Shown: positions 7,900-52,698 of the stretch, piece after piece
Layout: each line of letters opens with the position of its first letter
How positions within the stretch are numbered: position 1 is the stretch's first letter
Source of the DNA: Candidatus Woesearchaeota archaeon
GTDB lineage: Archaea; Nanobdellota; Nanobdellia; Pacearchaeales; GW2011-AR1
Direction of reading: 5' to 3'
Assembly: GCA_964544395.1 (NCBI GenBank)
Contig: CAZJAO010000001.1
Span: 41,185 to 105,184 of the forward strand
Length of the DNA: 64,000 nucleotides
Notes under the pieces: model-generated
What the model was told of the DNA's origin: nothing
What the model saw: only the letters and a program-made list of their open reading frames with translations
Databases searched by the model: none
Made by a program: the position numbers and the translations under genes

Positions 7900-8244
7900 G
7901 ATAACTGATAACACAAATGGTTAAAAAATCTTTTTATTGCTCTTATTTATGAGCCCAATAAGACTAACAGAACACTCTGATGGTAATCTATATTCTGGAA
8001 TAACAAAAGTAGTAGTAAAAAGAGCATATGGGGGGGGCGAAATCTCCCTTGATACTTTTTCAGTAAAAGATTTAGAAAGAGCAATTTCAGACAAAACAAA
8101 AGAATTCAAGGCAAATGCATATGAACCCCTCAAAGCTAATCTTGTGAATTGGAGCGGGGAATATCACGGTCAATTCCGTTTTTATGAAATTGACAAATCT
8201 GCTTTAACAAGAAAAAAACTAGAACTATATTAGCAATTCTATTA

Positions 8245-8406
8245 TTAAATCTTAACAGTCAATCCAAGTACTATTCTAAAACCAACTAAAAGTATCAAAA
8301 AGAAAATCACGTGCATCGGTTTAAGATTGAACAAGCTGGAATATTCTTCCTTGAATCTTACAAGCCCCCCATAACCAGAAGGTAAATTTATGCTTTCATC
8401 TGCCAT
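8245..8406 (-). CDS. preprotein translocase Sec61-beta subunit (archaeal SecG/Sec-beta), 53 aa
   Basis: manual translation gives MADESINLPSGYGGLVRFKEEYSSLFNLKPMHVIFFLILLVGFRIVLGLTVKI; has the conserved GLxRF/Y motif followed by a single C-terminal TM helix; below the ORF-track size cutoff. Confidence 0.6.
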   Translation of the reverse strand: MADESINLPSGYGGLVRFKEEYSSLFNLKPMHVIFFLILLVGFRIVLGLTVKI

Positions 8407-8483
8407 GATATTACAATCTTAAAAGGGTATAAAAAAGTTTTGTATCCGATAAGTTTTATAATATTGAAATTATAGATAAGTGT

Positions 8484-10841
8484 ATGTTTGAATTCAAGAA
8501 ATCAGAGGAAAAATGGAAGAAGTTCTGGGAAGATGAAAAAATCTACAGGTTTAATCCAGAAACCAAAAAGGAGATTTATTCTATAGATACACCTCCTCCA
8601 ACAGTTTCGGGAAGAATGCACATTGGACATGCCTGTTCCTATTCACAACAGGATTTTATTGCCAGATACAAGAGAATGCGCGGCTATGATATTTTCTATC
8701 CTTTTGGAACAGATGACAATGGATTAGCAACAGAAAGAATGATTGAAAAAATCAAAAATGTCAAAGCCAAAGATATGTCCAGAGAGGAGTTCATAAAATT
8801 GTGCCTTGAATTTCTCAAGAAAGAACTTCCAGAATTCATTCAAGATTGGAAAGATATTGGAATAAGCTGCGATTGGAATCTTCGCTATTCAACAATAAAT
8901 GAACATTCAAGACGAATTTCTCAGTGGAGCTTCTTGGACTTGCACAAAAAAGGAAGAATGTATAGAAAAGACGCTCCTGCAATGTGGTGTCCTGAATGCA
9001 GAACAGGAGTTGCTCAAGTGGAAGTTCGTGATAAAGAAATTGATTCACATTTCAATGACATAATTTTCAAAGTTGATGGAAGAGATTTGATAATTTCAAC
9101 AACACGTCCAGAATTGCTGCCGGCCTGTGTAGCAATTTTTTATAATCCTGAAGATATTAGATTCAAGAAATATCATGGGAAAAAAGCCCGTGTTCCTCTG
9201 TTTGATTTTGAAGTCCCAATTATGGAAGACAAAAGAGCAGACCCAAAAAAAGGAACGGGTGTTGTTATGTGCTGCACTTTCGGAGACCAGACAGATATGG
9301 AATGGCAGAAAGCCTACAATCTTCCGATAAAAATTGCCATTGGGAATGATGGAAGAATGACAGAAGTTGCAGGAAAATACAAGAATCTTCCAATAAAAGA
9401 AGCACGAAAAAAAATAATTGAAGACCTCAAAGAAGCCGGACTTCTTGTTTCTCAAAAACAGATAAAGCATTTTGTTAATGTTCATGAGCGTTGTGGCACT
9501 GAAATTGAATTTGTAAAAAGCAAGCAATGGTTCGTCAAATATCTTGATTTAAAAAAAGATTTGCTGAAATGGGGAAATGAGTTAAAATGGTATCCTAATT
9601 TCATGAAAGTAAGGTATGATAATTGGGTAAATGGATTGCAATGGGATTGGCTCGTTTCAAACCAAAGATATTTCGGAATCCCGATTCCAGTTTGGTATTG
9701 CAAAGAATGTGATGAAATAATAATTGCAAAAGAAGGACAATTGCCTGTAAATCCTCTTTCAGACAAGGCTCCCGTAAAACAATGCCCAAAGTGCGGCTCA
9801 AAAGAGATTATTCCTGAAAAAGATGTTCTCAACACATGGTTTACTTCTTCAATGTCACCGCAATTGTCAACCTGGCTCATGCCCGAGAAAGTTCAGAAAA
9901 GATTATTCCCGATGGACCTTCGTCCCCAAGCTCATGAGATTATCAGTTTCTGGCTTTTCAATACCTTGTTGAAATCAAGATTACACTTCGAAAAGAATCC
10001 TTGGAAGAATGCAATGATTTCGGGATATGTAACCATGAAAGGCGAGAAAATGTCAAAATCAAAAGGGAATGTAATAAATCCTAGGGATATAATGGAAAAA
10101 TATGGGAGTGATGCAATAAGATACTGGGCGGCATCATCAAAATTAGGAGAGGATTTTGATTACAATGAAAAGGATGTCCTTACTGGAAAGAAATTTGTTA
10201 CAAAATTGCTGAATGCATCAAACTTTGTTTTCATGAATCTAAAAGATTACAAACCAAAAGTCACAGAATTGGTTGAAACAGACAGAATATTTTTGAGCAA
10301 GTTAAATGAACTAATCGAAAACTCAACAAAGAATTTCGACAATTATGAATACAATCGTGTAAAATCTGATCTGGATAATTTTTTCTGGAAAATATTCTGT
10401 GATAATTACTTAGAGATTGTCAAAGGCAGAATTTACAATGGGAATGAAAAAGAAAAAGCCTCAGCCTGTTTCACTTTGTATCATATTTTGCTTTCACTAT
10501 CAAAAATGTTTTCTCCGATTACTCCTTTCATAACAGAAGAAGTTTATCAGGAGCATTTCAAAAAGAATGAAAAGTTCAAGAGTATTCACATTTCTTCGTG
10601 GCCTGAAAAATTCAAGATTAAAACATCAAAAGATGATGAAATAAAATTGAATTTAATGTTGGAGCTTATCTATCAAGTGCGACAGGAAAAAACAAAGGCA
10701 AATAAGCCAATGAATGCGCCAATAAAACTTGTTGTTGAAGCTCGCAGATTGAAAATAATAAAGGATATGTTAAGCGATTTGAAGAGCGTTACAAATTCTG
10801 GCGATATCCAAGAAGGCGATTTCGAAGTAGCCTTCAATTAG
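8484..10841 (+). CDS. valS: class I aminoacyl-tRNA synthetase with editing domain, most likely valyl-tRNA synthetase
   Basis: HIGH (PPPTVSGRMHIGHACSY) and KMSKS (KMSKSKGN) motifs; zinc knuckles (CPECRTG, CPKCGSKE); 785 aa fits archaeal ValRS; IleRS/LeuRS not fully excluded without alignment. Confidence 0.75.
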   Translation: MFEFKKSEEKWKKFWEDEKIYRFNPETKKEIYSIDTPPPTVSGRMHIGHACSYSQQDFIARYKRMRGYDIFYPFGTDDNGLATERMIEKIKNVKAKDMSREEFIKLCLEFLKKELPEFIQDWKDIGISCDWNLRYSTINEHSRRISQWSFLDLHKKGRMYRKDAPAMWCPECRTGVAQVEVRDKEIDSHFNDIIFKVDGRDLIISTTRPELLPACVAIFYNPEDIRFKKYHGKKARVPLFDFEVPIMEDKRADPKKGTGVVMCCTFGDQTDMEWQKAYNLPIKIAIGNDGRMTEVAGKYKNLPIKEARKKIIEDLKEAGLLVSQKQIKHFVNVHERCGTEIEFVKSKQWFVKYLDLKKDLLKWGNELKWYPNFMKVRYDNWVNGLQWDWLVSNQRYFGIPIPVWYCKECDEIIIAKEGQLPVNPLSDKAPVKQCPKCGSKEIIPEKDVLNTWFTSSMSPQLSTWLMPEKVQKRLFPMDLRPQAHEIISFWLFNTLLKSRLHFEKNPWKNAMISGYVTMKGEKMSKSKGNVINPRDIMEKYGSDAIRYWAASSKLGEDFDYNEKDVLTGKKFVTKLLNASNFVFMNLKDYKPKVTELVETDRIFLSKLNELIENSTKNFDNYEYNRVKSDLDNFFWKIFCDNYLEIVKGRIYNGNEKEKASACFTLYHILLSLSKMFSPITPFITEEVYQEHFKKNEKFKSIHISSWPEKFKIKTSKDDEIKLNLMLELIYQVRQEKTKANKPMNAPIKLVVEARRLKIIKDMLSDLKSVTNSGDIQEGDFEVAFN

Positions 10842-15487: not shown

Positions 15488-15528
15488 ATTACAATAATCC
15501 TTATTAATTCTTTAAGCTATTTTCTGAA

Positions 15529-16254
15529 ATGTCAAAAGAAAGGCTTTCTACAGGAAGTTATGATTTGAACAAGTGGCTATATGGAGGGTATGAAAAAGAT
15601 ATCATAACAATGATTGCAGGTTCTCCTGGAAGCGGAAAAACTAATTTTGCGATATTAGCTGCTTGCAGTCAAGCTAAAAAAGGATGCAAGGTTCTGTTCA
15701 TTGATACAGAAGGCGGATTTAGTGTTGACCGAGTTAAGCAGATCTCAGGAGAAAAATCAGAGGAGATTCTCAATAATATTTTCATTTTAAAGCCTACAAA
15801 CTTCAAGGAGCAGATGGAAGTAATTAACAACCTGAAAACGAAAATAAAAAAAGATTCTATAAGTCTGGTTGTGATTGATGGAATAGCTATGCTCTACAGG
15901 TTGGAGTTGGGAGACAATAGAAAAGACGATGAAGAAGTAAGGAGGATTAACCAAGAAGTTTCAAGGCAGATGAGAGATTTAGCAGAGATTGCAAGAAAAA
16001 TGGAAATCCCTGTAATAATAACAAATCAGGTTTATTCACAATTTCTTTCTGAAGAAGATTTAAGAAAAGGTGTTGAAAAAGAAACTAATATCGTAGGGGG
16101 GGATTTGTTCAAATATTGGAGCAAATGCATAATAAAATTATCCAATGATAACAAAAAAAGAAAGGCAGAATTGGTAAAGCATAGATTCCTTCCTGAAAAA
16201 GAGATATTTTTTGAAATAAGGAATGAAGGAATTTTCAAGAGGGGTTGGATATAA
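15529..16254 (+). CDS. radB: RadB-like RecA-superfamily ATPase
   Basis: Walker A GSPGSGKTNFAILAA, VLFIDTEGGFSVDRV; 241 aa without the RadA N-terminal HhH domain. Confidence 0.75.
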   Translation: MSKERLSTGSYDLNKWLYGGYEKDIITMIAGSPGSGKTNFAILAACSQAKKGCKVLFIDTEGGFSVDRVKQISGEKSEEILNNIFILKPTNFKEQMEVINNLKTKIKKDSISLVVIDGIAMLYRLELGDNRKDDEEVRRINQEVSRQMRDLAEIARKMEIPVIITNQVYSQFLSEEDLRKGVEKETNIVGGDLFKYWSKCIIKLSNDNKKRKAELVKHRFLPEKEIFFEIRNEGIFKRGWI

Positions 16255-17459
16255 TGGACGATATAAAATTTCAGGTTATCAAGAAAATAGCTGAAACTAA
16301 TTTCAAATACAAGGATTTGGGAAATATATCTAAAATAGACTCTACTTCTCCACCCAGCGTTTTCATAGGAAGCAAGCTAAGATATCCGATGGTAAATGTT
16401 GGAATTCTTTCTCCATTAGATAAAGATGAAAATGCTTGGATATATGATAACGAAAAATACTGGGCAAATAATAATTTCCAGATTAATGATGTTCTAAAAT
16501 TGAGAAATAGTTTGCTGAATTCAAGATTCCAGTCAAAAGTTCAGGATTCAAGGTTGAAAAAAAGATTTATCCAAATTGCGCAGGATATTGCTGTAGCTTC
16601 TCGTCCCGTAGATGTTGAGATACAATTAAGAAAAAATCTTAATCTCGGAAAGAATCAGGACAGAGTTGTAACCCCTCATGGAATGCATGCTGGTTTAAAG
16701 CAGGCAAAAATAACAGGCAATGTAAAGATAGATACCAAAGTTGACAAAGTCATGAATGATGAAATCAAAGCATCAGAAGGAATTGAATATCTCTACAAGA
16801 ATGAATTTACAGAATATTCTCTAAGCAAGATCTTAAGTGTTGGTGTTCTCGGATTGCAGAAAGACAAAAGACTTGTTCCAACGAGATGGAGCATTACTGC
16901 CACAGATGACACTTTAGGCAAATATTTGCTGAAAAGTGTAAGAGAATACAAATGGATTGAGAATTATGAACTATTCATGGGAGAATTTTTGGGAAACCAA
17001 TATCTTATCTTATTCTTTCCATCTGAATTTAACTTTGAATTATTTGAATTATATATGCCAAAAAGTTCCTGGAATCCATCAAGTGAAGTTAAAGCATCAA
17101 CAGACTCCGAGACTTATTCGGGGAGAAAAACATATGCATCAAACACCGCCGGAGGATATTATGCAACACGTCTTCCTATTTTGGAATATCTTAATAGAAT
17201 AAAACGTCAAGCTTCTGTATTGGCGATTAGAATTGAAACTCCAACCTACTGGGCAGGTTTGGGAGTTTGGGTCGTTAGAGAGTCTGTAAGGAAGTCTCTC
17301 AATAACGAACATTTTGAATTTGATGACATGAAGAAATTCATAGAAACCTCAAAAATCTTGGGAAACAAGAAATTCAATTTCAATTATACCACAATTATGG
17401 ATAAGAGCAAGTTAATCAAGCAAATCACGACTCAGAAAAATCTGAACCAATGGTTCTAA
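16254..17459 (+). CDS. conserved archaeal protein with C-terminal PCNA-interacting PIP box; possibly Nre-family DNA repair protein
   Basis: C-terminus ...TQKNLNQWF fits the PIP consensus QxxLxxWF and closely matches the FEN-1 C-terminus in this window (KQKNLERWF); placement directly after radB with a 1-nt overlap (TAATG); Nre assignment is from memory of COG1602-like proteins and is unverified; the ORF-track start at 16245 is TTG, the ATG is at 16254. Confidence 0.4.
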   Translation: MDDIKFQVIKKIAETNFKYKDLGNISKIDSTSPPSVFIGSKLRYPMVNVGILSPLDKDENAWIYDNEKYWANNNFQINDVLKLRNSLLNSRFQSKVQDSRLKKRFIQIAQDIAVASRPVDVEIQLRKNLNLGKNQDRVVTPHGMHAGLKQAKITGNVKIDTKVDKVMNDEIKASEGIEYLYKNEFTEYSLSKILSVGVLGLQKDKRLVPTRWSITATDDTLGKYLLKSVREYKWIENYELFMGEFLGNQYLILFFPSEFNFELFELYMPKSSWNPSSEVKASTDSETYSGRKTYASNTAGGYYATRLPILEYLNRIKRQASVLAIRIETPTYWAGLGVWVVRESVRKSLNNEHFEFDDMKKFIETSKILGNKKFNFNYTTIMDKSKLIKQITTQKNLNQWF

Positions 17460-17461
17460 TC

Positions 17462-17518
17462 ACCGCTTTTTTAATACAAAAGTAAAAAATAAAAAATAAA
17501 TGTTTTCAAGGAGATAGT
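17462..17518. terminator. bidirectional oligo-T/oligo-A terminator region between convergent genes
   Basis: gcttttttaa immediately after the + gene stop; on the minus strand ttattttttattttttac after the RRM gene stop; archaeal terminators are oligo-T tracts. Confidence 0.4.
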
Positions 17519-17881
17519 TTAGTATCTGCCTCTGCTGTTATTGTCTCTTCCACCGAAGCTTCTTCTCTGACCGCCGCCAAAACCGCCTTGTCTAGGTCCT
17601 CTGTTTCCAAAGTCTCTTCTAGGTGGTCTTGGTGCATCAGGGTCGAAAGGCTTAGCTTCAGACAACTTCAATTCTCTTCCTTTGAAGTCTTTTCCGTTCA
17701 ATTCAGAAATTGCTTTGTTAGCAGCTTCATCATCCGGAATTGTAACGAAACCAAAACCCTTTGATCTTCCGTTGAATTTATCTTTAATGAGTACAACTTC
17801 TTCAGTTTCAAAACCAGAAAAAAGCTCTTTCAAATCAGACTCTTCAACCGTGAAAGGCAAATTACCTACGTAAATTTTCAT
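17519..17881 (-). CDS. RRM-domain RNA-binding protein with a glycine/arginine-rich tail (bacterial glycine-rich RBP type)
   Basis: RNP-2 (KIYVGNL) and RNP-1 (KGFGFVTI) motifs; C-terminal RGG/GGF repeats; strong SD AGGAGG 7 nt upstream of the ATG. Confidence 0.9.
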   Translation of the reverse strand: MKIYVGNLPFTVEESDLKELFSGFETEEVVLIKDKFNGRSKGFGFVTIPDDEAANKAISELNGKDFKGRELKLSEAKPFDPDAPRPPRRDFGNRGPRQGGFGGGQRRSFGGRDNNSRGRY

Positions 17882-18438: not shown

Positions 18439-20757
18439 TTATAAAAAAGAGACTTTATCTTCCGCCTCTGCCTCTTTCTTCTTCTGGTATTCTTCCATCC
18501 TTACCTTGTTTGTAGGGCATTGGGGATTAAAGCAGAAAATCCATGGCTTTCTGCCCTTTGAAAGTCTCATTAGCATAGGGAATCCGCATGCCTCACAGAT
18601 TTTCTCGGTTTTTTTGATTAGCCCATTCGGAGGCAGGCTGTAAGTGTTCTTGCATTCAGGATACTTGTTGCATGCGACAAAAGATCTTCGTGTCTTCTTG
18701 GAATATATTATTGCGAGATTTCCCTGTCCGCACTTAGGACATTTGTTCAAAGTATTCAATCTTTTTTGCTCCTCAATCAAATCAAGATTGGCTTCAAGCA
18801 ATTCTCTTCCAATATTATTCTTATTCTTATCAAAATGTACTATAATCTCTGTAATAGCATCTTCTGCTTCACGGATAATCTTGTCTTCTTTTTCCTGAAA
18901 TCCTTTATTCTCTTCCTGCATCCTTTCCATTTCATCTTCAAAATTTCTTGTCAGCTGTTCATCGATAATAATTGGTGAATATCTTTCCATTGTGGAAATC
19001 AACGACAAGCCAAGGGGGGTTGCTTCAATGCTTTTTTCCCTGATGTAACCCCGATCATAAAGAGTTTCCAGGATTGCAGCTCTTGTTGCTTTCGTTCCAA
19101 GATTTCTTTTTTCAAGTTCAGCCACAATTGAAGCAGGCGAATATCTTTTCGGTGGCTGCGTTTCTTTCTCTTCATTTCTTACTTTGGTAATTTCAAACTC
19201 GCCATCTGCATCGGGAATATTTTTTTCATCAATCTTAGCAGGATAAACTTCCATCCAGCCTTTCTTTCTGATAGAAGAGCCTTTTAATGTAAATTTCATT
19301 CCATCGATAACACCTGAAACTGTTTTTCTGTCAATAATTGCATCATCACAGAATAAAGCAACAAATCTTCTTACAATTAAATCATATAACTTCCTTTCTT
19401 CAGCAGATAATGTTGCGTCCATATTTTCACCTGTCGGGAAGATAGAAGGATGTGCTGAATCTGTTTTTTCTCCTTCAACAGGTTTGTCTCTTATAATTAA
19501 TTTCGTCATAGGATATTCTCTTGACAATTTTTTCAAAATCTCTCTATATTCAACAGATTCTGGAAGTTTCTGACTTGATGTTCTTGGATAAGAAATCATT
19601 CCGCCAAGATAAAGCGATTGTGCAATCTGCAGAGTTCTCGCAGGAGTAAAGCCGCAAAGCTTGTAAGCTTCGGTCTGCAAGGCCGTCAGATTAAAAGGAG
19701 GATTTGGGGGAATGCTCTGGCTTGTCTTCTCGGTCTTTAGCAAAATCTTCTTTCCTACAAGATTGTCAAATTTTCCAAGTTCTGCTTTATCAAAAATGTC
19801 TTTGTTATATTGAAGTTCAAAAATCATAGGACGTGTATCTTTGTTCTGGACTGTGATAAATACGTCCCAATACTTTACTGGCTTGAATTCCTGAATTTCT
19901 CTTTCTTTCTCAACAATAATATTAAGTGTCGGTCCTTGAACTCTTCCGATAGACATTATCTTGAATCTCCCCGTTGATTTTATAGCATCCATCAATGCTC
20001 TTGATAAATTAATTCCATAAAGCCAATCAAGATAATGCCTTGTTTCTCCTGCAATCGCCTGTCCCCAATCAAGATGAGGAAGTTTGTTATCATAAGAATT
20101 GTTCAATTCAGCAGAGGTTAATGTTGAAAATTTCATCCTGTTTGCATCTTCCTGCCCGCAAAGATATCTTACAATATTCAATCCAATAACTTCACCTTCC
20201 ACATCATAATCTGTAGCGATGGTCACGCTTCCAGCGCCTTTTACCAGTCTTAAAATAGAATCATAATATCTTTTCGTGAAATCATTTTTCTTGGCTAAAT
20301 AATTTGGAACCCAGTAAATATCAAAAACAGGTGTCCCAGCATTTCTTGTCCTTTGCGTCAGAGTAAACAAATGTCCGACAGCACAGGTTACAATAATTTT
20401 CTTTCCCTTTCTGTCAACTTCATAATAATTAACTCCTCCGATATTTTTCGTTGTAGCTTTTCCTAGGGCGCTTGCAATTTTTGCAGCTGCTTGTGGCTTT
20501 TCAGTTATAACTAATTCATATCCTTCTTTCTTGAGCTTAAATTTGGAAGATTCATATTTAACAGAACCAGATATTTTTTTTCCTGAAACAACTCTCTTCT
20601 TGCCTCTTTTTTTGGATCTCTTTATTTCAACAGTCGGCAAAGGCAATGCCTTAACAGACTTTTTCTCAACAGCATGAGCCAAATCAGTCTCACTTATAGG
20701 AAAATAATTCTCTGCTGTAACCTGTTCACGACTTTTCGTTTTCTTTTTTCTAAGCAT
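18439..20757 (-). CDS. topA: DNA topoisomerase I/III (type IA) with C-terminal zinc ribbons and a basic N-terminal extension
   Basis: Toprim start YELVITEKPQAAAKIA, type IA core motifs, C-terminal Cys4 ribbons (CPKCGQG...CNKYPECKN; CEACGFP...CFNPQCP); the ORF-track start at 20871 is TTG, the first ATG at 20757 (MLRKKKTK...) is used; ~85 basic residues precede Toprim. Confidence 0.85.
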   Translation of the reverse strand: MLRKKKTKSREQVTAENYFPISETDLAHAVEKKSVKALPLPTVEIKRSKKRGKKRVVSGKKISGSVKYESSKFKLKKEGYELVITEKPQAAAKIASALGKATTKNIGGVNYYEVDRKGKKIIVTCAVGHLFTLTQRTRNAGTPVFDIYWVPNYLAKKNDFTKRYYDSILRLVKGAGSVTIATDYDVEGEVIGLNIVRYLCGQEDANRMKFSTLTSAELNNSYDNKLPHLDWGQAIAGETRHYLDWLYGINLSRALMDAIKSTGRFKIMSIGRVQGPTLNIIVEKEREIQEFKPVKYWDVFITVQNKDTRPMIFELQYNKDIFDKAELGKFDNLVGKKILLKTEKTSQSIPPNPPFNLTALQTEAYKLCGFTPARTLQIAQSLYLGGMISYPRTSSQKLPESVEYREILKKLSREYPMTKLIIRDKPVEGEKTDSAHPSIFPTGENMDATLSAEERKLYDLIVRRFVALFCDDAIIDRKTVSGVIDGMKFTLKGSSIRKKGWMEVYPAKIDEKNIPDADGEFEITKVRNEEKETQPPKRYSPASIVAELEKRNLGTKATRAAILETLYDRGYIREKSIEATPLGLSLISTMERYSPIIIDEQLTRNFEDEMERMQEENKGFQEKEDKIIREAEDAITEIIVHFDKNKNNIGRELLEANLDLIEEQKRLNTLNKCPKCGQGNLAIIYSKKTRRSFVACNKYPECKNTYSLPPNGLIKKTEKICEACGFPMLMRLSKGRKPWIFCFNPQCPTNKVRMEEYQKKKEAEAEDKVSFL

Positions 20758-20827
20758 GATTTTAGTATAAAAGAGGCATTTTTTAACTTTGTGATATATT
20801 TTTAATATAAAAAATCTTGAAATAAAG

Positions 20828-21883
20828 ATGGTTAATTTGAAATGGAGAAAAACTAAGTTCTTAGTATCCAAATTGCCTCCAAAATTATCAATCGGGGTTT
20901 ATTCTCTGGGACGCCAAGTATTCTTGTCCGGGATGAAAAGAGAAACTCCAAAAGAAGCTTATGTCCCCCCTCAAAGCCTGAACAGGAAATTATGGGGCAT
21001 TGATTTTAGAACTCCTTTATTTAATGCAGCGGGAGTGTTCAAGGATTTCAGCTGTTATGATTTAGCATTCAAACAGGGCGCAGGAGCTTATTTGGTAGGA
21101 ACAATAACTCCTACGAGTAATGAAGGAAATCAGATTAATAGTATTCACCTGCCATTTGCAATTTATCCAAATTCTCATGCATCTTCAAATTCATTAGGAC
21201 TGCCTAATAAAGGAATAATCAAGATATTGAAAGGAATTTCTGAAATTGAACGGCATGAAGGATTTCCAATTGGAATAAGCTTAACATCAGACTCTTTGGA
21301 AGAATTAGTGTATTCACTGCAATTATGTGAAGGGAGCAGGATTGATTTTGTTGAACTTAATGAAAGCTGCCCAAATAAAAAAAATGCAGGGAATTTGAAG
21401 CAGAGATTGGAATACGTAAAGAAAAAATTCCTAGAAAAAGCAGATTTTCCCGTTATTATCAAGCTTTCAAATGATTTGGATTTTGCTCAAATTCCAGACA
21501 TTATGGATTCGCTCTTTGAACTCGGTTATGATGGAATAAATCTGGGGAATAGTTCAACAGATTATCATGCGATAAGGAATAAAATTCATTTGAAGGATTT
21601 GCCTCTTTATGATTTTTTCACAAAAAATTTCAAGGGAGGAGTAAGCGGTGAACCATTAAAGCATATATCTTTAGAATTGTCAAGCATCGCAGTTCAATAT
21701 GTTAAAGCAGCTTCTCCACGGCAAGAATTTCATGTTACAAGAACAGGAGGAATTCAAACTCGGGAAGATATTTCTGCTTCTGAAGAAGCGGAGATATCAT
21801 TAAACCAAATGGGTGTTGGATATTTTGAGAGTTTAATTGCTCATGGAAATGATTTGTATAAAGATATCTGGGAGAAAGAATAA
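20828..21883 (+). CDS. pyrD: dihydroorotate dehydrogenase-family flavoenzyme (PyrD-like)
   Basis: FRTPLFNAAGVFKD, LGLPNKG, VELNESCPN and TGGIQTREDI match DHODH/DHPD family signatures; 351 aa. Confidence 0.65.
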   Translation: MVNLKWRKTKFLVSKLPPKLSIGVYSLGRQVFLSGMKRETPKEAYVPPQSLNRKLWGIDFRTPLFNAAGVFKDFSCYDLAFKQGAGAYLVGTITPTSNEGNQINSIHLPFAIYPNSHASSNSLGLPNKGIIKILKGISEIERHEGFPIGISLTSDSLEELVYSLQLCEGSRIDFVELNESCPNKKNAGNLKQRLEYVKKKFLEKADFPVIIKLSNDLDFAQIPDIMDSLFELGYDGINLGNSSTDYHAIRNKIHLKDLPLYDFFTKNFKGGVSGEPLKHISLELSSIAVQYVKAASPRQEFHVTRTGGIQTREDISASEEAEISLNQMGVGYFESLIAHGNDLYKDIWEKE

Positions 21884-23478: not shown

Positions 23479-25818
23479 TTATCTGCTCATTCTCTTTCTT
23501 GCAGTTCTAACAAGAGTTGTAGAAACAATAATTACTCCGGAAATTATCATGATAAACAAGAAGTAATATGTTACTGTACCAATGCTAAGCTGAAGATCTC
23601 CAGGAAGCCCATTAAAGAATCCTTCAATGCCATTTAATACTCCTTGGAAGAAATTTGCAGCTTCCTTGGACGTTGTTATACATCTTCCTTCGCCACATCC
23701 AAGCTGGCAATGCTGCGATAAAATCCATACATTGCTTGAACAAACTTGTGAGTCATTCAAAAGACATCGTGTGTTTCCATTATTGCATTCAATAAGCCTT
23801 GCAAGAATCGTATAATTTGAAAATCCTGGAGAGATTGCAGTAAAGTAATAAAATTGGGAATCCTGCGAAGTCAAATTAGTGGGAAGTGCGGTCCAAGTTC
23901 CACCCGCGTTTCTATACAAGGAGATATTTATTGGGTCGAGATTATTTGCAGACATCCATGAATTATTTACTTGGAAATTAATTGCAACATTAGAAATTTG
24001 AGAATCATTCACACCAGTAGTCAAAATCTGGAAAGATTGATAGATATGATTGCTCGCTGCAATCTGAAGCTGAACAGGGGGGATTTGTGAAACAGTAACT
24101 ATTGCATTTGAAACCGGCTGATTAGTTGTTATCTGCAATTGTGTGAGCCCAATTGTAGCGGAATTGATGTTCATTGTTATTGGAACACCCGCAGTTGTTG
24201 AAAATAAAGTCGTGCTCGTTGACCCGTTATTTGTGATAATAGCTCCTCCTCCACCCCCGCTTCCTTCGCCGCCGGATGAACCACCATTATTTGATGAACC
24301 ATTTCCGTTTGATGACGAATAAGTAAAAGTAATACTTGCAGAACTTTGACTTCCAACGCTATTATTTGCATAAACAATCCAGGTATTAATTCCTGCTGCG
24401 GGAGTAATAGTAAAACTTGAACATGTTGGGTCCGGCGTTGAATTTGTTATGCCTCCATTCATGCTATACCAACAGGAAGCTAGGGCAACATCTGATGCAG
24501 AATAAATTAATTGTGGCGCAATGCTATAAGACGAATTTGTTGGAGAGGAGATTGAAACAGTTGGAGCAGCATTGTCTATAGTAATTGTATAATTAGTTGA
24601 ATTAAAGGCATAATTTCCCGCGGAATCAACCCCCAAAACATTCCATGTATAAACTCCATTTCCGGGAAAAGTATAAGTCCAACTTGTTGAATTTGAAGTT
24701 CCTAAAAGAGTAGTTAGGTTATAAGAATTAAATGGTGGAATTAAAGATAAGCCCCCATCAAATGCCATTGCAAGGACATTACCAAATGCAGTTCCATTAT
24801 AAAAAATAAATGTCCCATTTGGGAGAATTTTTTGAACATTTCCGCCTTCATTAGCAGCCCACATGTTTACACCGTCAAATGCAATTCCGAAAGGATAATA
24901 GCCAATAGGACCTCCAGTATAATTTGTCATTGTACCATTAGGAGATACTTTTGTTATATTACCCGGAGCAACACCATTTCCCGCATTAGAAGTCCACATA
25001 TTTGTTCCATCAAAAGCTATTTTATAATTTGAAGTTCCGGTTCCGAGGTATGTTGTCATGGTTCCATTGGGTGCAACTTTTGTAACACTATTACATCCAT
25101 AATTCGTAGTCCACATGTTTACACCGTCAAATGCAATTCCGACAGGATTGCATCCTGTTCCTGAATAAGTAGTCATTCCCCCTGTTGAATTTACTTTAGT
25201 AACACTACTGCCTCCAGTATTAGCCACCCACATGTTTACACCGTCAAATGCAATTCCGCTCGGAGCAGAACCTGTTCCTGAATAAGTAGTCATTCCCCCT
25301 GTTGAATTTACTTTAGTAACACTATTACCACCATTATTAGCGGTCCACATGTTTACACCGTCAAATGCAATATCATCGGGACCACTTCCCGTACTGCTAT
25401 AAGTTACCATGGTTCCATTTGGAAAAACTTTTGTAACACTGTTTCCGCCAGCATTAGCGGTCCACATGTTTACACCGTCAAATACTATTGCACTAGGACT
25501 ATTTCCAGTCGCAGTATAGTTAGCAATAATTGTCCCATTTGGGAGGACTTTTGACACAGCAGCGGTAGTAGTTACAGCCGCCCACATATTTCCCGCTCTG
25601 CCGACATTAATTCTGTCTCCTGTTGAGTCCCAGACAAACAATCTTGCACTTTGAAGAGGAACCGCACTGGATAAACTAACTAAAAGTGTCTGAGTAGGAT
25701 TAGTGGAATAGATATTGCTGGAAGCATTAAGATTTACTATAGGAGCTGCAGATAAAAAATTAAATAATAAAACAAAAAACACTAAAGAAATTACTAATAT
25801 CAACCTCTTTCTATGCAT
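23479..25818 (-). CDS. cell-surface beta-propeller protein (YVTN/NHL-like ~40-aa repeats) with Gly/Ser linker, Cys-rich module and C-terminal TM anchor; heavily N-glycosylation-sequon rich
   Basis: signal peptide; at least 8 repeats of the form VTKVxxNGTMTTYSGTGSxPxGIAFDGVNMWTAN.GGNS; linker SSNGNGSSNNGGSSGGEGSGGGGGA; C-terminal CxxGC-rich segment and TM helix plus RKRMSR tail; dozens of NxS/T sequons. Confidence 0.7.
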   Translation of the reverse strand: MHRKRLILVISLVFFVLLFNFLSAAPIVNLNASSNIYSTNPTQTLLVSLSSAVPLQSARLFVWDSTGDRINVGRAGNMWAAVTTTAAVSKVLPNGTIIANYTATGNSPSAIVFDGVNMWTANAGGNSVTKVFPNGTMVTYSSTGSGPDDIAFDGVNMWTANNGGNSVTKVNSTGGMTTYSGTGSAPSGIAFDGVNMWVANTGGSSVTKVNSTGGMTTYSGTGCNPVGIAFDGVNMWTTNYGCNSVTKVAPNGTMTTYLGTGTSNYKIAFDGTNMWTSNAGNGVAPGNITKVSPNGTMTNYTGGPIGYYPFGIAFDGVNMWAANEGGNVQKILPNGTFIFYNGTAFGNVLAMAFDGGLSLIPPFNSYNLTTLLGTSNSTSWTYTFPGNGVYTWNVLGVDSAGNYAFNSTNYTITIDNAAPTVSISSPTNSSYSIAPQLIYSASDVALASCWYSMNGGITNSTPDPTCSSFTITPAAGINTWIVYANNSVGSQSSASITFTYSSSNGNGSSNNGGSSGGEGSGGGGGAIITNNGSTSTTLFSTTAGVPITMNINSATIGLTQLQITTNQPVSNAIVTVSQIPPVQLQIAASNHIYQSFQILTTGVNDSQISNVAINFQVNNSWMSANNLDPINISLYRNAGGTWTALPTNLTSQDSQFYYFTAISPGFSNYTILARLIECNNGNTRCLLNDSQVCSSNVWILSQHCQLGCGEGRCITTSKEAANFFQGVLNGIEGFFNGLPGDLQLSIGTVTYYFLFIMIISGVIIVSTTLVRTARKRMSR
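24740..25560. repeat. intragenic tandem DNA repeats (period ~117-123 bp, at least 6 units) encoding the propeller blades
   Basis: catgtttacaccgtcaaatgcaattcc recurs near 24861, 25111, 25227, 25348 and 25469; adjacent units are near-identical over >40 nt (e.g. tcattccccctgttgaatttactttagtaacact near 25181 and 25301). Confidence 0.8.
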
Positions 25819-44582: not shown

Positions 44583-45179
44583 ATGGAAGGAGAAAGGCAA
44601 TTATATGCAAGAAGTGAAGGTACTGCTGTTACTCTTAGAAAACTTCCCGTCTCTTATTATGGAGAAGCATTTGCAGGGAAAAAATCGGATTTGGTAAGTT
44701 ATAATGACGGTTCAAGAAAGTTAAAAGCTGATGCACTATGTTATATAGAAGACGAGAGAACTTCTGTTACTAGCAAAGTGTTATTCAGAGTAAACCCACA
44801 GAGAATTGTAAGGACAAGTGATTCTCCTCTTGTTGAGAAGATTGCAGTTGGTAAAGGAGAGCTAGAGTTTAGAGTAAAAGATGGGCAGATGTATGTTTGT
44901 TCAAGAAATAAAAGCGGAACAACGACTTATGAAATTTCCAAAGAGCTGGCGAGGGGCATAGCTCCAGAAGAGGCACTTAGAAATGCAGAAGCAAGTGTTT
45001 TAGCAGATCTTGAAATGAGGAGAAGGCAAGCGGAAATGAGACTGAGTTTGGCTAATTACAATAGAAAGCAATTAGTTTTGGAAAGATTAAGAAAAGCAAG
45101 AAATAATGCGGAGATTGATGATGAGACTCTAAATGGAGTCCTGAAACAATTGGCTGCAAGAGAAAGAGACGCTGCTTAA
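44583..45179 (+). CDS. hypothetical protein with atypical Arg/Ala/Glu-rich composition
   Basis: 198 aa; uses Arg rather than Lys and is visibly GC-richer than neighbours; no recognisable motif; converges on the polB 3' end with a 4-nt overlap. Confidence 0.4.
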   Translation: MEGERQLYARSEGTAVTLRKLPVSYYGEAFAGKKSDLVSYNDGSRKLKADALCYIEDERTSVTSKVLFRVNPQRIVRTSDSPLVEKIAVGKGELEFRVKDGQMYVCSRNKSGTTTYEISKELARGIAPEEALRNAEASVLADLEMRRRQAEMRLSLANYNRKQLVLERLRKARNNAEIDDETLNGVLKQLAARERDAA

Positions 45180-47644
45180 AAATCTCCAAGGGTCATCTGT
45201 TTCTTAGTTTCTAAAATTGCATTAATGTCCAGATTGAAAACCTGAAAGATATTTTCAACAGCAGGAAGAATCTGATGTTTTAGATAATATTCAATGTCAT
45301 ATTCTCCTTCTTCATTTGCAAGTTTTACTCTATCTCTTACAAGTCCTTTCTTCTTCGGAGATGCAGAACCATTTGGGCTCTGCTCTGCGATATAATATTC
45401 TATCAAAGCTCCTTCATCAATTGGAATGTGCATCTCTTCCATTTTTTTCGCAGCAATGACGTGGGGAGTTATAGATTTGTATTCTGAAATAGGCTTTTTC
45501 AATTGCGTTCTTACTAAAATTTCTTCTTTGTCAATTCTGCGTTCCTTGATTTTTGCAGAAATCTCTTTTATATAAGTTAATGCTCGGTTCTCATTTCCAT
45601 CTTCAAGAATCATTCTTAAAATTCTGTTTTGCGTTTCTCTTGCAAGGTCGCACCAATCTCTTCTTACTGTTTCAAATCCTCTTATCTTTAATTTTCCTTC
45701 CTCGCCAATCAGCGCATATTTCTTCTTGGCTCCAAATTCTCCTGTTCTCTTTGTAACCCATATTCCTCTCTTGTAAAAATCTTCTAATTCCAGTTCCATT
45801 ATTCCGGGAAGTTTTTCATTCAATTTTTCAAGCATTTCAGTAGTTTCTTTTTTGGATTTTCCATTCTTCAGGAAAGCAATGGAATCGGTATCTGAATAAA
45901 TTGTTTTGAATCCTGATTTGTCAATTTCATCAATCATTTTTTTAATGAAATCTCTGCTCAAGGATGTTGTTGCTGCGGAAGCTTCAGGACAATAATACCT
46001 TGCCCCGAAAAATCCCTGATATCCATAAGAGGCATTTGCCAAAAGCTTGAAAGCATTGCTTCTTGCTCTTGTAATCGCGCTGTCTTTTTTCTTTAATTCC
46101 TGCTTGTATTTTTTTCTCAAAAGAATTATTTCTTTCAGCATTTCAGGGAAGAATCCGGGCTTTTTGTCAAAATAAACTTTTCTGCCTATATCAACTTCAA
46201 GCGAATCTTTTTCTTTTTTCTCAAGAAGAGTCGATGCAGACAGATTAAAAGTAACAATTATGCTTGGCCAATAGCTTGTGAAATCAAATAATACGATGTC
46301 TTCGTATAGTCCGGGAGTAGGCTGAAAAACAAATGCTCCTTCATATTTCTCTCTCCTTCTTCTCTTTCCAATCTCTTCGGCCATTGGTCGCTTTTCAGGA
46401 ATTTCATTAAATCTTTCAAGATTATGAATTATGTAAGATTCAACATTCTTTGACATCCCATTTCTTGAAACATCAAACATAGGTTCCCCCATAACTCTTG
46501 AAAATTCTATCAAATCAGGCCAGAATTTGAAGAACAATTTGTAAGTAAGAATTGAATCATGAAGATTGTATTCAAAATAATCTTTCCAGTCAGATTCAGC
46601 CATTTCAGATAATCCCTTGAATCCGAATTCTTTTTTGTTATCGCCAAGAAACTCGCGAGCAACATCATTCAAGGACAAAGTTTCAGACTGCATATATTGC
46701 GAATAAGCACTGTCAATAAATTTCAGCAGGTCAATATGAACAATTCCATCTACTTTACATGTAAGAACAGCACCTCGGTGAAAAAGGGGCTGACTTCCAT
46801 CAAGTCCGAAAGATAGCTTGACACCATTTTCTTCTGCTCTTGATTTAAGATAAGGCATATCAAAACCATCGCTGAAATATCCCACTAAAAAGTCAGGAGA
46901 AATCTTCTTTACATATTCCAAAAATCTTTCAAGCAGTTCAGCCTCATCTTTGACATATTCAACGTAATCAATTTTGTCCTTCGCACTTTTCCAAGTAATA
47001 ACTTTCTTGAAATTGTCGGAAACAAGAGAAATCATAAGAATTCTTCCTTTTCCGATTCTGAACTCGTCTGTTTCAATATCAAAAGCCAAAACTCTTGGAT
47101 TGAATTCATCCCTTTCAATTTTCTTGGCAGATTTTAACTTAATGCACAAATCAACTTCAAGGTTTGCATCTATTCCTCCAAAATCCAAACTGTTGTTAAG
47201 CACATCTCCTTCAATTTCATACCATGAAAGAGGAACAATTTTCTTCTCGATTATATAATGACTTACAAAGCCAAGGTCATAACCTCTTCTTTTTTCGATT
47301 TCATCCATTCCAAGCTTATCCGCAATATCATGCAAATCCTTGTAATTTGTTGCAAAAATCTTAAACGCCTTAACATCTTTTCCCATGAATTTCTTATCAT
47401 GAAGTTCAACTTTCTCAACTCGCGTTTGCCTGCCCTTTACATTCAATTGTATCTTCTCCATCTTCTCCCTTAATTTTTGTATCTGCTTGTCATTTATCTT
47501 GTCCTTCAAAATAGCCCAGAAATAGATATCACAGGAGTCAATTACACAAATCCTCTTGCCTTTTGCATCTCTTCCGATGAGTTTAGCATAATTTCTGCCT
47601 TCAAAGTCAAAATAGTCATAATCAAGGGGAATAAAGTCAAGTTT
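45176..47644 (-). CDS. polB: DNA polymerase, family B (no inteins)
   Basis: Exo I (LAFDIETDE), motif A (DFTSYWPSIIVTFNLS), motif C (IYSDTDSIAF), KKKYA-like KKKYALI motif; the ORF-track start at 47752 is GTG, the first ATG at 47644 (MKLDFIPLDYDYFDF) is used and sits ~27 nt downstream of a TATA-like box (leaderless-like). Confidence 0.9.
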   Translation of the reverse strand, partial: KLDFIPLDYDYFDFEGRNYAKLIGRDAKGKRICVIDSCDIYFWAILKDKINDKQIQKLREKMEKIQLNVKGRQTRVEKVELHDKKFMGKDVKAFKIFATNYKDLHDIADKLGMDEIEKRRGYDLGFVSHYIIEKKIVPLSWYEIEGDVLNNSLDFGGIDANLEVDLCIKLKSAKKIERDEFNPRVLAFDIETDEFRIGKGRILMISLVSDNFKKVITWKSAKDKIDYVEYVKDEAELLERFLEYVKKISPDFLVGYFSDGFDMPYLKSRAEENGVKLSFGLDGSQPLFHRGAVLTCKVDGIVHIDLLKFIDSAYSQYMQSETLSLNDVAREFLGDNKKEFGFKGLSEMAESDWKDYFEYNLHDSILTYKLFFKFWPDLIEFSRVMGEPMFDVSRNGMSKNVESYIIHNLERFNEIPEKRPMAEEIGKRRRREKYEGAFVFQPTPGLYEDIVLFDFTSYWPSIIVTFNLSASTLLEKKEKDSLEVDIGRKVYFDKKPGFFPEMLKEIILLRKKYKQELKKKDSAITRARSNAFKLLANASYGYQGFFGARYYCPEASAATTSLSRDFIKKMIDEIDKSGFKTIYSDTDSIAFLKNGKSKKETTEMLEKLNEKLPGIMELELEDFYKRGIWVTKRTGEFGAKKKYALIGEEGKLKIRGFETVRRDWCDLARETQNRILRMILEDGNENRALTYIKEISAKIKERRIDKEEILVRTQLKKPISEYKSITPHVIAAKKMEEMHIPIDEGALIEYYIAEQSPNGSASPKKKGLVRDRVKLANEEGEYDIEYYLKHQILPAVENIFQVFNLDINAILETKKQMTLGDF

Positions 47645-47697
47645 CATGTAAAAATTAGTTTCATAATCCTTAAATACCTTTTTTTGTGTAATTTTGC

Positions 47698-48351
47698 ATG
47701 GATGAGCATTTACTTGGAGAACCCGTAAATAGTAATGATAAACAGGTATCACCTAATCCCAGGACTAAAATGTTGGAAGAGAGATTAGAAGATGCCGGGC
47801 GGAATGGCAGATCTATTGAACTTTCATTAATAATAGATGAATTAGGAATAGAGCCAGAACCAAGATATCAAGTCTACTATGATCAAGGCATCGAATGGAG
47901 ATCAAATTTATCTAAAGTTCAAATCGAAGGAATTAAAATGAGAATAGGATTAATTGAAGCCAAACCCAAAAAAAGGCAGAATTTGCGTGCAATCGCTGAA
48001 TCATATTCAAAGGAAGATGAAGCACGTTCAGCTCCTGCTGAACCTGAAAAGAGACTACAACCTAAGCAGTATACAATAGCTCAATACGACATTGATAAAA
48101 GTATGGATGGTTATGTAAAAGTAAAACGTGTTAATTTAAGAACTTATGAAGAAGCAATTAAATTCTTAGAAATGTTTGGTACACCTACATTAAAGATTGA
48201 GGGAGGAAAGCAGCTTCCCTTAAAAGAATGTACGCCCTCAAGAGTCATAGCTGCTGCAATTGGAAAATATGATGATGCCCAAATACGATTAAAAGAAAAG
48301 AGGGATAATTTAAGAGAAATAATTAATGGTTCTCATCCCGAGTACGAATAA
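47698..48351 (+). CDS. hypothetical protein (compositionally atypical) directly upstream of the HerA-like ATPase
   Basis: 217 aa, Arg/Glu/Ala/Pro-rich, ATG start; no recognisable motif. Confidence 0.4.
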   Translation: MDEHLLGEPVNSNDKQVSPNPRTKMLEERLEDAGRNGRSIELSLIIDELGIEPEPRYQVYYDQGIEWRSNLSKVQIEGIKMRIGLIEAKPKKRQNLRAIAESYSKEDEARSAPAEPEKRLQPKQYTIAQYDIDKSMDGYVKVKRVNLRTYEEAIKFLEMFGTPTLKIEGGKQLPLKECTPSRVIAAAIGKYDDAQIRLKEKRDNLREIINGSHPEYE

Positions 48352-48406
48352 ATATTAAAACTCTGCTTGGTATTTCTAATTATGAAAGTTTTCAAACTTC
48401 TTGTTT

Positions 48407-48445
48407 GGGATGCTGGAAATTGTAGAAACCCGCAGGAGGTTTCAC
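48407..48445 (+). promoter_or_regulatory. copy 1 of the conserved 5' leader hairpin that sequesters the AGGAGG ribosome-binding site
   Basis: ggatgctgg-aaattg-tagaaacccgcaggaggtttcac-ATG; stem gaaacc/ggtttc with loop cgcagga; the same sequence recurs at 59222-59251 with one extra base pair. Confidence 0.6.
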
Positions 48446-49750
48446 ATGTATGATATCATAATCGGGAGGGACGCTTCTGACAAAGAAAAATTTGGTGACA
48501 GGGGACTTATTTTCATTGGAAAGGGCTATGTTAAAATGGGACAATATACTTCTTTGAGCAATAGGATTTTAATGGACGTAGTAAGAAGCCATGTAGTTTT
48601 AGTAGCTGGAAAAAGAGGAAGTGGTAAATCTTATACATTAGGTGCAATTGCGGAAGAACTTTCTAATCTTCCAGCAGATATAAGCAAAAATATTGCTTCT
48701 CTGATTTTCGATACAATGGGGATTTATTGGACCATGAAATTCAGAAATGAAAAAGACAGAGACTTGCTTCTCGAATGGGGATTGAAAACCAAAAACTTGC
48801 CAGTTAAAATATTCGTTCCTTTCGGACATTTTGATGAATATCAAGCGAAAGGAGTTTCAGTAGATGAAAAATTCGCCCTTGATATAACTGAACTGAACCC
48901 CGAGGATTGGATTATTACTTTTGGTTTGGATATGATAAGTCCGACTTCAATATTAATCGAAAGAACAATCTCCGAATTGAAAACAAAAGGCAGATTTGGA
49001 ATAGGAGATATTATTGAAAGATTTGAAGGAGACGAAAAATCTGCACAGGAAACAAGAAATGCTGCAGTTTCTCTTTTTGAAGCAGCGCGAACATGGGGTG
49101 TTTTCTCAGAGAAAGGAAAAGATGCAACGCAAATAAGGGATTTGATTACCGCAGGAACTACTTCTGTTCTTGATTTAAGTGTATACAATTCAATTGGAGC
49201 TTTCAATGTCAGGGCATTAGTAATAAGCCTTGTATCAAGAAAGATTTTCAACGAAAGAATGGATGCAAGAAAAAAAGAGGAAGTGCAGTCAATTTCAAAA
49301 GGTGCAAATTATCTTTCATCATTGGAAACTAAAGAAACTCCCTTGACATGGTTGTTTATTGATGAAGCCCACGAATTTCTCCCGCTTACAGGAAAGACTG
49401 CCGCTTCTGATGCATTGATTCAATTGCTTAGAGAAGGAAGACAACCAGGAATCTCTGTTGTTCTTGCAACGCAGCAGCCGGGGCAGATTCATAGAGATGT
49501 CATGACTCAGTCAGACATAGTTATTTCTCACAGGGTTACATCAAAACCAGATTTGGACGCCTTAGGTTATATCATGCAAACTTATTTGAGCGAAAGCATA
49601 AGAAATTATATGAATGACCTTCCCACATTAAAAGGTTCTGCAATTATTCTTGATGATAATTCCGAAAGGATTTATCCCATGAGAGTTCGTCCAAGATTCA
49701 CATGGCATGGTGGTGAGGCTCCAACAGCTATCGGTGTAGAAAAAAAGTAA
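48446..49750 (+). CDS. HerA/FtsK-superfamily (DUF87-like) P-loop ATPase
   Basis: Walker A VLVAGKRGSGKSYTLG, Walker B WLFIDEAHEFLP, ATQQPGQI (HerA-type ATQRP box); the ORF-track start at 48401 is TTG and translates through the leader hairpin, so the ATG at 48446 after the SD is used. Confidence 0.6.
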   Translation: MYDIIIGRDASDKEKFGDRGLIFIGKGYVKMGQYTSLSNRILMDVVRSHVVLVAGKRGSGKSYTLGAIAEELSNLPADISKNIASLIFDTMGIYWTMKFRNEKDRDLLLEWGLKTKNLPVKIFVPFGHFDEYQAKGVSVDEKFALDITELNPEDWIITFGLDMISPTSILIERTISELKTKGRFGIGDIIERFEGDEKSAQETRNAAVSLFEAARTWGVFSEKGKDATQIRDLITAGTTSVLDLSVYNSIGAFNVRALVISLVSRKIFNERMDARKKEEVQSISKGANYLSSLETKETPLTWLFIDEAHEFLPLTGKTAASDALIQLLREGRQPGISVVLATQQPGQIHRDVMTQSDIVISHRVTSKPDLDALGYIMQTYLSESIRNYMNDLPTLKGSAIILDDNSERIYPMRVRPRFTWHGGEAPTAIGVEKK

Positions 49751-51657: not shown

Positions 51658-52698
51658 TTAGAACCAACGTTCTAAATTTTTCTGCTTGTTCTTCTCTTCG
51701 GTTATTTCAAGTTTCTCCAATTGTTTGTCAATCCTTTCTTCAGAGAAATCATGCTTCTCTACGAGGATTTCCTTTATTTTTGCTACGTCAAGCTTGTTTG
51801 ATTTCAAATCTGAATTTACAACATCAGGCTTGTGAAATAAAGCAAAAATCTCTTTCCAATCAAATTTGTCTTCTTCATCCATCTTTTCCATCTGCTCTTC
51901 AACACTCTTGAAAATCATGACTGGTTGTTTATATTGCTGGACAATTTTCAAAGCTTTCTTTTGCCCAATTCCAGGAATTCCTTTGGGATTATAATCTGTT
52001 CCGACAAGTATTCCTAAGCAAATCAATTGGTCAAGACTAATGTTAAGGGTATTCAAAACTTTTTCAAGTTCGATAATTTCAGGATTGACTTCTATCCATC
52101 CCCTGAATGTTTTTCTTTTTTTGGAAAAAGTAAGATTTCTTACCAATTTTGGTGTTCCGAATAATAAACTGTCGTAATCCTGGCTTACACTCGCATAAAT
52201 CTTGTCTTTGATTCTTGCAAGATAAGCAGCTTCAGCTTCGCCCTCTCCTGGAGCTTGAACAACTGCAATTCCCATAGCACTCAGAAGTTCCTTTGCCTCT
52301 TCTATCATCTCGTGATTTAGCCTTACAAGCTGACTGCCGTATCTCTTCATCGCAGGCAAGTCTTCTTCTTGTTTTGCTTCTTCATATCTTTCTTCTGAAA
52401 CCTCTCTACTATCGTGTCTTTTTTCATGAGTCTTGTATTTTAAATCAGGGGCTTTCCCATCAAATGCATAAATCAACTTTATCCCTTCAGCAAGAAGACT
52501 TACATTTCTGTAAAAAATTCCTGACAGGTGGCTTGTGATTCTTCCTTTATTGTCCATAAGAGGAGTTCCATCAGGCTGCCTAATCGTAGATAAAAACTGA
52601 TAAAGGATATTGAATGCATCAACACAGAGCGTCTTGCCTTTCAAATCAGAAATTTTTATTTCTTCTCTTGGAATTATATCACTTATATTCAAACCCAT
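51658..52698 (-). CDS. fen: flap endonuclease FEN-1
   Basis: XPG-N (MGLNISDIIPREEI...CVDAFNILYQF) and XPG-I regions, H3TH, C-terminal PIP box QKNLERWF; 346 aa. Confidence 0.9.
   Translation of the reverse strand: MGLNISDIIPREEIKISDLKGKTLCVDAFNILYQFLSTIRQPDGTPLMDNKGRITSHLSGIFYRNVSLLAEGIKLIYAFDGKAPDLKYKTHEKRHDSREVSEERYEEAKQEEDLPAMKRYGSQLVRLNHEMIEEAKELLSAMGIAVVQAPGEGEAEAAYLARIKDKIYASVSQDYDSLLFGTPKLVRNLTFSKKRKTFRGWIEVNPEIIELEKVLNTLNISLDQLICLGILVGTDYNPKGIPGIGQKKALKIVQQYKQPVMIFKSVEEQMEKMDEEDKFDWKEIFALFHKPDVVNSDLKSNKLDVAKIKEILVEKHDFSEERIDKQLEKLEITEEKNKQKNLERWF

Follow-up and report, generated by a model that had tools for sequence, protein, structure and literature searches.

What is the protein encoded directly downstream of radB in this archaeal genome, and does its position there say anything about what it does? 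We addressed both questions in a 64,000-nucleotide stretch of contig CAZJAO010000001.1 from a Candidatus Woesearchaeota archaeon (the window, to whose numbering all positions refer unless a contig is named). A preliminary description made from the letters alone had pointed to the gene at 16254-17459 as encoding an unknown protein of 401 amino acids (aa) with a PCNA-interacting peptide (PIP) box at its C-terminus. The protein carries both domains of the archaeal Nre DNA-repair family over their full length and ends in a conserved, canonical PIP box. The account we favour, at a probability of about 85%, is that of an NreA-type repair factor which is tethered to PCNA by its PIP box, acts on damaged DNA and is co-expressed with RadB.

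Family identity of the protein encoded downstream of radB

The features on which this identification rests are:

16254..17459, forward strand: nreA-type gene for an Nre family protein of 401 aa, with Pfam and NCBIfam matches
17433..17456, forward strand: codons of the PIP box QKNLNQWF (Qxx[L]xx[W][F]), the TAA stop lying directly 3'

The reading frame starts with ATG at 16254, stops with TAA at 17457-17459 and gives a protein ending in ...QITTQKNLNQWF, directly followed by the stop. With the alternative in-frame TTG (16245) as the start, the protein would be three residues longer (404 aa); the 401-aa form is also called independently on metagenome contigs that encode the identical protein. The reading frame and its QxxLxxWF-type ending were thus correctly described, but the protein is not an unknown one. 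Pfam Nre_N (PF04894) matches residues 9-274 over positions 10-270 of a 270-position profile (E = 4.2e-77, 260 bits, cutoff 25), and Nre_C (PF04895) matches residues 286-400 over positions 1-110 of 110 (E = 4.9e-30, 104 bits, cutoff 27). The NCBIfam model NF041387, DNArepr_NreA_Halo, is also matched (E = 2.9e-96), with 323 bits against an equivalog cutoff of 700; as this model is haloarchaeon-specific, a score below the cutoff excludes only the haloarchaeal equivalog group and not the Nre family. The resemblance to Nre-type repair factors, which had been suggested in the preliminary description, is therefore well supported.

A search of 5.8 billion proteins returned an identical sequence (P0001) together with homologues in the thousands, each of which has the two Nre domains. 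Several homologues in public collections bear the name NreA or 'Nre family DNA repair protein', and proteins 94-98% identical to ours carry the JGI name 'DNA repair protein NreA'. NCBI labels the gene 'hypothetical' in these DPANN genomes, for which the present work offers a clean annotation. The nearest genomes are metagenome-assembled genomes of Nanoarchaeota, Pacearchaeota and Woesearchaeota, and the G+C content of the window is 34.6%. A few homologue records bear bacterial labels (e.g. L013, L076, P0117, P0310) and are likely to come from mislabelled bins. Nre proteins have been described as archaea-specific, of about 400 aa and with a C-terminal PIP box (PMC4929162). Both domains (PF04894 and PF04895; COG1602), the length and the archaeal distribution all agree with the family here, and the window holds a single Nre gene.

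Two paralogues have been distinguished within the family. A clear canonical PIP box is the stated hallmark of NreA, and NreB, the second Nre protein of some archaea, has a weaker PIP and often adjoins a SplB-like gene (PMC4929162). Many Nre proteins also have an N-terminal Cys4 module, which is not universal (PMC4929162), so that its absence is no bar to membership. Our protein has no cysteines within its N-terminal 45 residues and hence lacks this metal-binding module (CxxCKG...CG...CP). The module is missing throughout the Pacearchaeota-type clade and is present in members from Woesearchaeota, Thermococcus, Bathyarchaeia and Asgard archaea. The textbook terminal PIP box, the lack of a SplB-like neighbour and the lack of N-terminal cysteines together point to a member of NreA type without the Cys4 module, as in haloarchaea. 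The NreA proteins of Haloferax volcanii (HVO_0734) and Archaeoglobus fulgidus are likewise archaeal, of about 400 aa, with full-length Nre_N and Nre_C domains and a PIP box at the extreme C-terminus; haloarchaeal NreA shares the absence of the Cys4 module as well, but haloarchaeal-type representatives are only about 34% identical to our protein, which scores below their equivalog cutoff. As judged by its sequence, the protein is an ordinary NreA-type member of a known archaeal DNA-repair family, from a DPANN archaeon. The family, its name, its PCNA-binding tail (2016) and its variable Cys4 module are already published, and near-identical proteins are annotated as NreA. A role in a defence system was considered and rejected, the protein having no PADLOC match.

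The C-terminal PIP box and the PCNA clients of the window

We searched the last 14 residues of the 104 window open reading frames (ORFs) of at least 80 aa for the pattern Q..[LIMV]..[FWY][FWYL]. Only two matched, Nre and the flap endonuclease FEN-1, and the pattern was found at no other place than the C-terminus in any window ORF of at least 150 aa. Shuffling the residues (2000 rounds) gave an expectation of 0.02 exact C-terminal PIP boxes against the two observed (P(>=2) = 0.0005). The match in Nre is not due to chance.

The motif is also conserved in Nre orthologues from Pacearchaeota, Woesearchaeota, Thermococcus, Bathyarchaeia and Asgard archaea, so that the preliminary description, which had made its proposal depend on homology to a repair family and on conservation of the motif, is borne out on both counts. 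A canonical PIP box lies within the last 16 residues of 110/120 close homologues, 102/119 Woesearchaeota homologues (41-50% identity) and 75/116 homologues from Thermococcus, Bathyarchaeia and Asgard archaea. Among 138 full-length representatives of clusters at 50% identity, 57 have a canonical PIP box and 35 more have QxxLxx[FYW] with a single aromatic residue. The PIP glutamine, Q394, is invariant in an alignment of 62 sequences (A2, 32-69% identity) and at least 90% conserved in one of 140 sequences (A4). Across archaeal phyla the linker that precedes the PIP box varies while the box itself is kept.

FEN-1 and the other PCNA clients or clamp-loader genes of the window are:

51658..52698, reverse strand: FEN-1 (XPG_N and XPG_I domains), ending in ...KNKQKNLERWF
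51661-51684, reverse strand: codons of the FEN-1 PIP box QKNLERWF, the stop codon being 51658-51660
45176..47752, reverse strand: PolB, family B DNA polymerase, ending in QMTLGDF*, a PIP-like tail with a single aromatic residue
53941-54903, reverse strand: RFC small subunit, adjoining the AAA+ protein below
52768-53940, reverse strand: AAA+ protein, probable RFC large subunit, ending in ...EEEEYLDRQN

The FEN-1 and Nre tails share the core QKNLxxWF, as had been noted, but the positions then given for the FEN-1 tail (51658-51660) are those of its stop codon. Archaeal FEN-1 tails in general follow Q-x-x-L-x-x-W/F-F. Six of the eight PIP residues are identical between the two proteins (QKNLERWF and QKNLNQWF), whereas their bodies are unrelated, one being an XPG nuclease and the other an Nre fold without known catalytic activity. 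The archaeal clients with a C-terminal PIP box (FEN-1, PolB, the RFC large subunit, RNase HII and NucS) have a docking peptide of the form Qxx[L/I/M]xx[F/W/Y][F/W/Y/L], as does Nre. The likeness of the two tails is best read as the shared constraint of one PCNA pocket rather than as common descent of the proteins. PolB is probably a third PCNA client in the window. With Nre, FEN-1, PolB, the RFC small subunit and the probable large subunit, the window is indeed rich in such proteins, as the preliminary description had remarked; the window ORFs that we scanned include no PCNA gene. Unlike many archaeal RFC large subunits, the probable one here lacks a recognisable C-terminal PIP box.

The radB-nre junction in this genome and its relatives

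The elements around the junction, all on the forward strand, are:

15501..15508, forward strand: TATA-box-like element TTATTAAT, about 21-28 nucleotides (nt) before the radB ATG, putative promoter of radB-nre
15529..16254, forward strand: radB, encoding a 241-aa RecA/Rad51-family paralogue with the Walker A motif GSPGSGKT
16240..16244, forward strand: AGGGG, Shine-Dalgarno-like motif inside the 3' end of radB and 9 nt before the nre ATG, putative ribosome-binding site
16252..16256, forward strand: TAATG junction of the radB stop (TAA, 16252-16254) and the nre start (ATG, 16254-16256), base 16254 being common to both
17467..17472, forward strand: run of six T residues (T6) 8 nt past the nre stop, putative archaeal oligo-T terminator

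The radB product matches Pfam Rad51 (E = 2.8e-29) and, with 196.7 bits against a cutoff of 172.4, TIGR02237 recomb_radB. It consists of the RecA-fold core ATPase domain only and lacks the N-terminal helix-hairpin-helix domain. RadB has been described in a review as confined to Euryarchaea (PMC7776575); its occurrence above the TIGR02237 cutoff in a DPANN genome is contrary to that description.

The one-nucleotide overlap of radB and nre was correctly described, and the same TAATG junction is called on independent metagenome contigs. In order to read the start-site grammar directly, we compared 48 gene starts in the window. First genes of units lack a Shine-Dalgarno motif and in many cases have a TTTATAAA-like box some 22-30 nt ahead of the ATG, a pattern suggestive of leaderless mRNAs. 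Where a gene abuts the one upstream of it, a GGAGG-like motif stands at -8 to -13. No TATA-like box precedes the nre start. The radB-nre transcript would by this grammar be leaderless and driven from the TTATTAAT box. The TATA-like box before radB, the overlap, the Shine-Dalgarno-like motif, the T6 run and the convergent orientation of the next gene make a bicistronic radB-nre transcript the most likely reading of these signals.

We then looked at the arrangement in 80 related Pacearchaeota-type genomes, whose Nre proteins are 62-91% identical to ours. In 69 of the 80, radB lies upstream of nre on the same strand, and in six of the remaining 11 loci the upstream sequence is shorter than 1.3 kb. 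The spacing between the two genes is distributed over the 69 loci as follows:

Overlap: 3/69 loci
1-100 nt: 18/69 loci
101-300 nt: 11/69 loci
More than 300 nt: 37/69 loci, often with an extra gene between

The two genes belong to a syntenic block found clade-wide, orf219-HTH-rpoL-radB-nre-(RRM)-topA. At least 18 loci have a same-strand, fast-evolving ORF that separates radB from nre and encodes about 220 aa:

L003, 3258-3953: ORF of about 220 aa between radB and nre
L012, 632-1285: the same
L039, 3262-3969: the same
L065, 3215-3865: the same
At least 14 further loci: the same

This ORF has an N-terminal hydrophobic-DTS motif. It gave no Pfam match beyond PIN_12 at E = 0.024 and has no homologue in the window.

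The linkage of radB and nre is a gene order specific to the lineage, and in this species and those closest to it the two genes have come to overlap; as evidence of functional coupling the synteny is weak. A comparable case is known from Thermococcus kodakarensis, where the gene of a repair factor with a C-terminal PIP box, nucS, overlaps the RecA-family recombinase gene radA (PMC4929162); there, however, the partners are the NucS/EndoMS nuclease and RadA instead of Nre and RadB, and the comparison is an analogy only. On one Bathyarchaeia contig (L088), nucS, encoding a PIP-bearing PCNA client, lies at 8238-9119, about 3 kb from nre, a single case. What is new in the present work is the Pacearchaeota-specific radB-(orfX)-nre gene order and the description of the predicted Nre fold at the level of domains.

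Proposed function, alternative readings and neighbouring genes

The functional evidence for the family comes from two archaea. The C-terminus of A. fulgidus NreA bound PCNA in a two-hybrid screen (PMC4929162). In Hfx. volcanii, deletion of nreA or of its PIP box alone causes sensitivity to mitomycin C (MMC), a phenotype that is epistatic with uvrABC (PMC4929162; PMC7776575) and additive with mre11-rad50, hef and hjc (PMC4929162). From after 2016 we found only reviews and one expression-correlation mention bearing on the biochemistry or structure of Nre.

The predicted structure suggests what kind of body the PIP box would hold at the clamp. An AlphaFold2 model built on a 140-sequence alignment (28-80% identity, three archaeal levels of divergence) reached a mean predicted local distance difference test score (pLDDT) of 89 and a predicted TM-score of 0.90, whereas a shallow alignment of 42 sequences (68-94% identity) gave a pLDDT of 39 and a useless model. 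Less certain parts are the loop 133-138 and the extreme N- and C-termini. In keeping with an exposed docking peptide, the tail has a pLDDT of only about 62 and forms a short helical turn (397-400). No solved Nre structure was found in the PDB, either with the single protein as query (spurious haemagglutinin matches only, E >= 0.012) or with a profile. Foldseek searches with the model gave no significant whole-chain match in the PDB (best E = 0.02, TM < 0.2) and none in the viral BFVD collection. The similarities of the model are at domain level only, to OB-fold-like and ribosomal-S5-domain-2-like structures, and the same themes recur among the non-significant Foldseek matches. Judging by the order of secondary-structure elements, an OB-like domain may occupy the N-terminal third (strands 27-54, 87-95, 119-125 and 144-153), and a beta3/4-alpha-beta-alpha domain of the S5-domain-2-like type may span approximately residues 238-350. 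Most of the polar residues that are invariant in the family fall in this second region (E262, E265, D284, E286, R291, R326, Y332, R342 and E343), and the invariant G300-G301-Y302-Y303 stands at the N-terminus of a helix. The body of the model is compatible with a DNA-binding and possibly a catalytic or phosphate-binding role.

In the account that we favour, the last eight residues, QKNLNQWF, would form a canonical PIP box terminating a flexible tail that docks in the hydrophobic pocket of PCNA. Docking would tether the conserved body of about 390 residues to PCNA-loaded DNA, where it would help to repair damage. The body, with its OB-fold-like and S5-domain-2-like parts and invariant acidic, arginine and glycine-rich positions, may act directly on the DNA. 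From the bicistronic unit, RadB, a recombination mediator paralogue, and the PCNA-bound Nre would probably be made together.

A number of observations weigh against this account or narrow it. With a score below the NF041387 cutoff, the name NreA here denotes an Nre protein with a clear PIP box and not a proven equivalog. The attempted purification of the Nre family failed (PMC4929162), and its sole genetic link is to UvrABC, in one haloarchaeon, Hfx. volcanii (PMC4929162; PMC7776575). Co-transcription, which had been deduced from the overlap, is plausible in the window by virtue of the overlap, the Shine-Dalgarno-like motif and the lack of a TATA-like box; the tight coupling, however, is not conserved. 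The same-strand order did hold up in relatives when the proposed check was made, but only three of the 69 have the overlap, and the 37 gaps of more than 300 nt often hold an inserted gene. In other archaeal phyla adjacency is missing: nre is not next to radB in three Woesearchaeota loci examined, in Thermococcus paralvinellae, on one Odinarchaeia contig or on the Bathyarchaeia contig L088. A family-wide linkage to radB was rejected for this reason. In Hfx. volcanii the two genes (nreA, HVO_0734; radB, HVO_2383) lie far apart (PMC7776575), in contrast to the predicted radB-nre operon of this DPANN archaeon with its reduced genome.

Other readings of the locus differ in what they make of the PIP box, of the paralogue and of RadB. 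That QKNLNQWF is fortuitous and binds no PCNA, its likeness to the FEN-1 tail being a coincidence, is hardly credible. Strings of this type are short and the PIP box of our protein is known from its sequence alone, yet only 0.02 terminal matches were expected where two occur, both in DNA-metabolism proteins; the motif is kept across phyla over a changing linker; and homologues show PIP-dependent function and a two-hybrid interaction with PCNA (PMC4929162). The protein could also be an NreB-type paralogue whose function, linked to a SplB-like radical-SAM protein, would be unlike that of NreA. NreB has the same domain pair and a similar length, Pfam cannot separate the two, and the NCBIfam NreA score lies below its cutoff. 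We nevertheless regard an NreB identity as improbable, given a textbook terminal PIP box of the kind that marks NreA in place of the less clear-cut one of NreB (PMC4929162), immediate neighbours (radB on the upstream side, an RRM protein on the downstream side) that include no radical-SAM or SplB-like gene, near-identical proteins that JGI names NreA, and a single Nre gene in the window.

The remaining alternative gives RadB a larger part: RadB and NreA would form a functional module of this lineage, in RadB/RadA recombinational repair or fork restart at PCNA-loaded intermediates and not in a UvrABC-linked pathway, the gene overlap reflecting selection for stoichiometric co-expression. The stop/start overlap with its Shine-Dalgarno-like motif, the position of radB in 69 of the 80 related genomes, an OB-fold-like domain that could bind single-stranded DNA (ssDNA), and nearby genes for a type IA topoisomerase and an Lhr helicase are all consistent with such a module. 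However, the whole orf219-HTH-rpoL-radB-nre-topA block is syntenic, so that adjacency may be inherited gene order; in over half of the relatives the two genes are more than 300 nt apart, in many cases with the unrelated ORF of about 220 aa between; adjacency is absent in the other phyla and in Haloferax (PMC7776575); and the additive phenotypes of nreA with mre11-rad50, hef and hjc in Hfx. volcanii suggest that it works outside the pathway of those recombination factors (PMC4929162). On balance we consider a dedicated RadB-NreA module unlikely. More speculative again is a variant in which the Pacearchaeota-type NreA was recruited to RadB-linked, PCNA-anchored recombinational repair. Its body, which would join an OB-fold to an S5-domain-2-like domain bearing the invariant acidic/Arg/Gly-rich cluster and has no relative of solved structure, would then be an unrecognised type of DNA-processing enzyme that works at the clamp on intermediates containing ssDNA. 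The NreA-type repair factor tethered to PCNA thus remains our preferred reading. Knowledge of the chemistry of the Nre family would supply a missing piece of archaeal PCNA-dependent repair, although for the question of activity this window is no more tractable than any other Nre gene.

Other genes of the window that touch on nre or on DNA metabolism are:

18439-20871, reverse strand: type IA topoisomerase with a Zn ribbon, a DNA-metabolism gene near nre
26327-28927, forward strand: Lhr-type helicase (DEAD, WH_Lhr and DEAD_assoc domains), a DNA-metabolism gene near nre
48401-49750, forward strand: HerA-like ATPase, a DNA-metabolism gene in the window
23479-25818, reverse strand: ORF of 779 aa with no Pfam match at E <= 1e-5
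17519-17881, reverse strand: RRM protein of 120 aa (RRM_1, E = 7e-22) with a Gly/Arg-rich tail, convergent with nre

Archaea do not commonly encode RRM proteins. The loci L001, L002, L024, L037, L059 and L060 likewise have a homologue of this one near nre.

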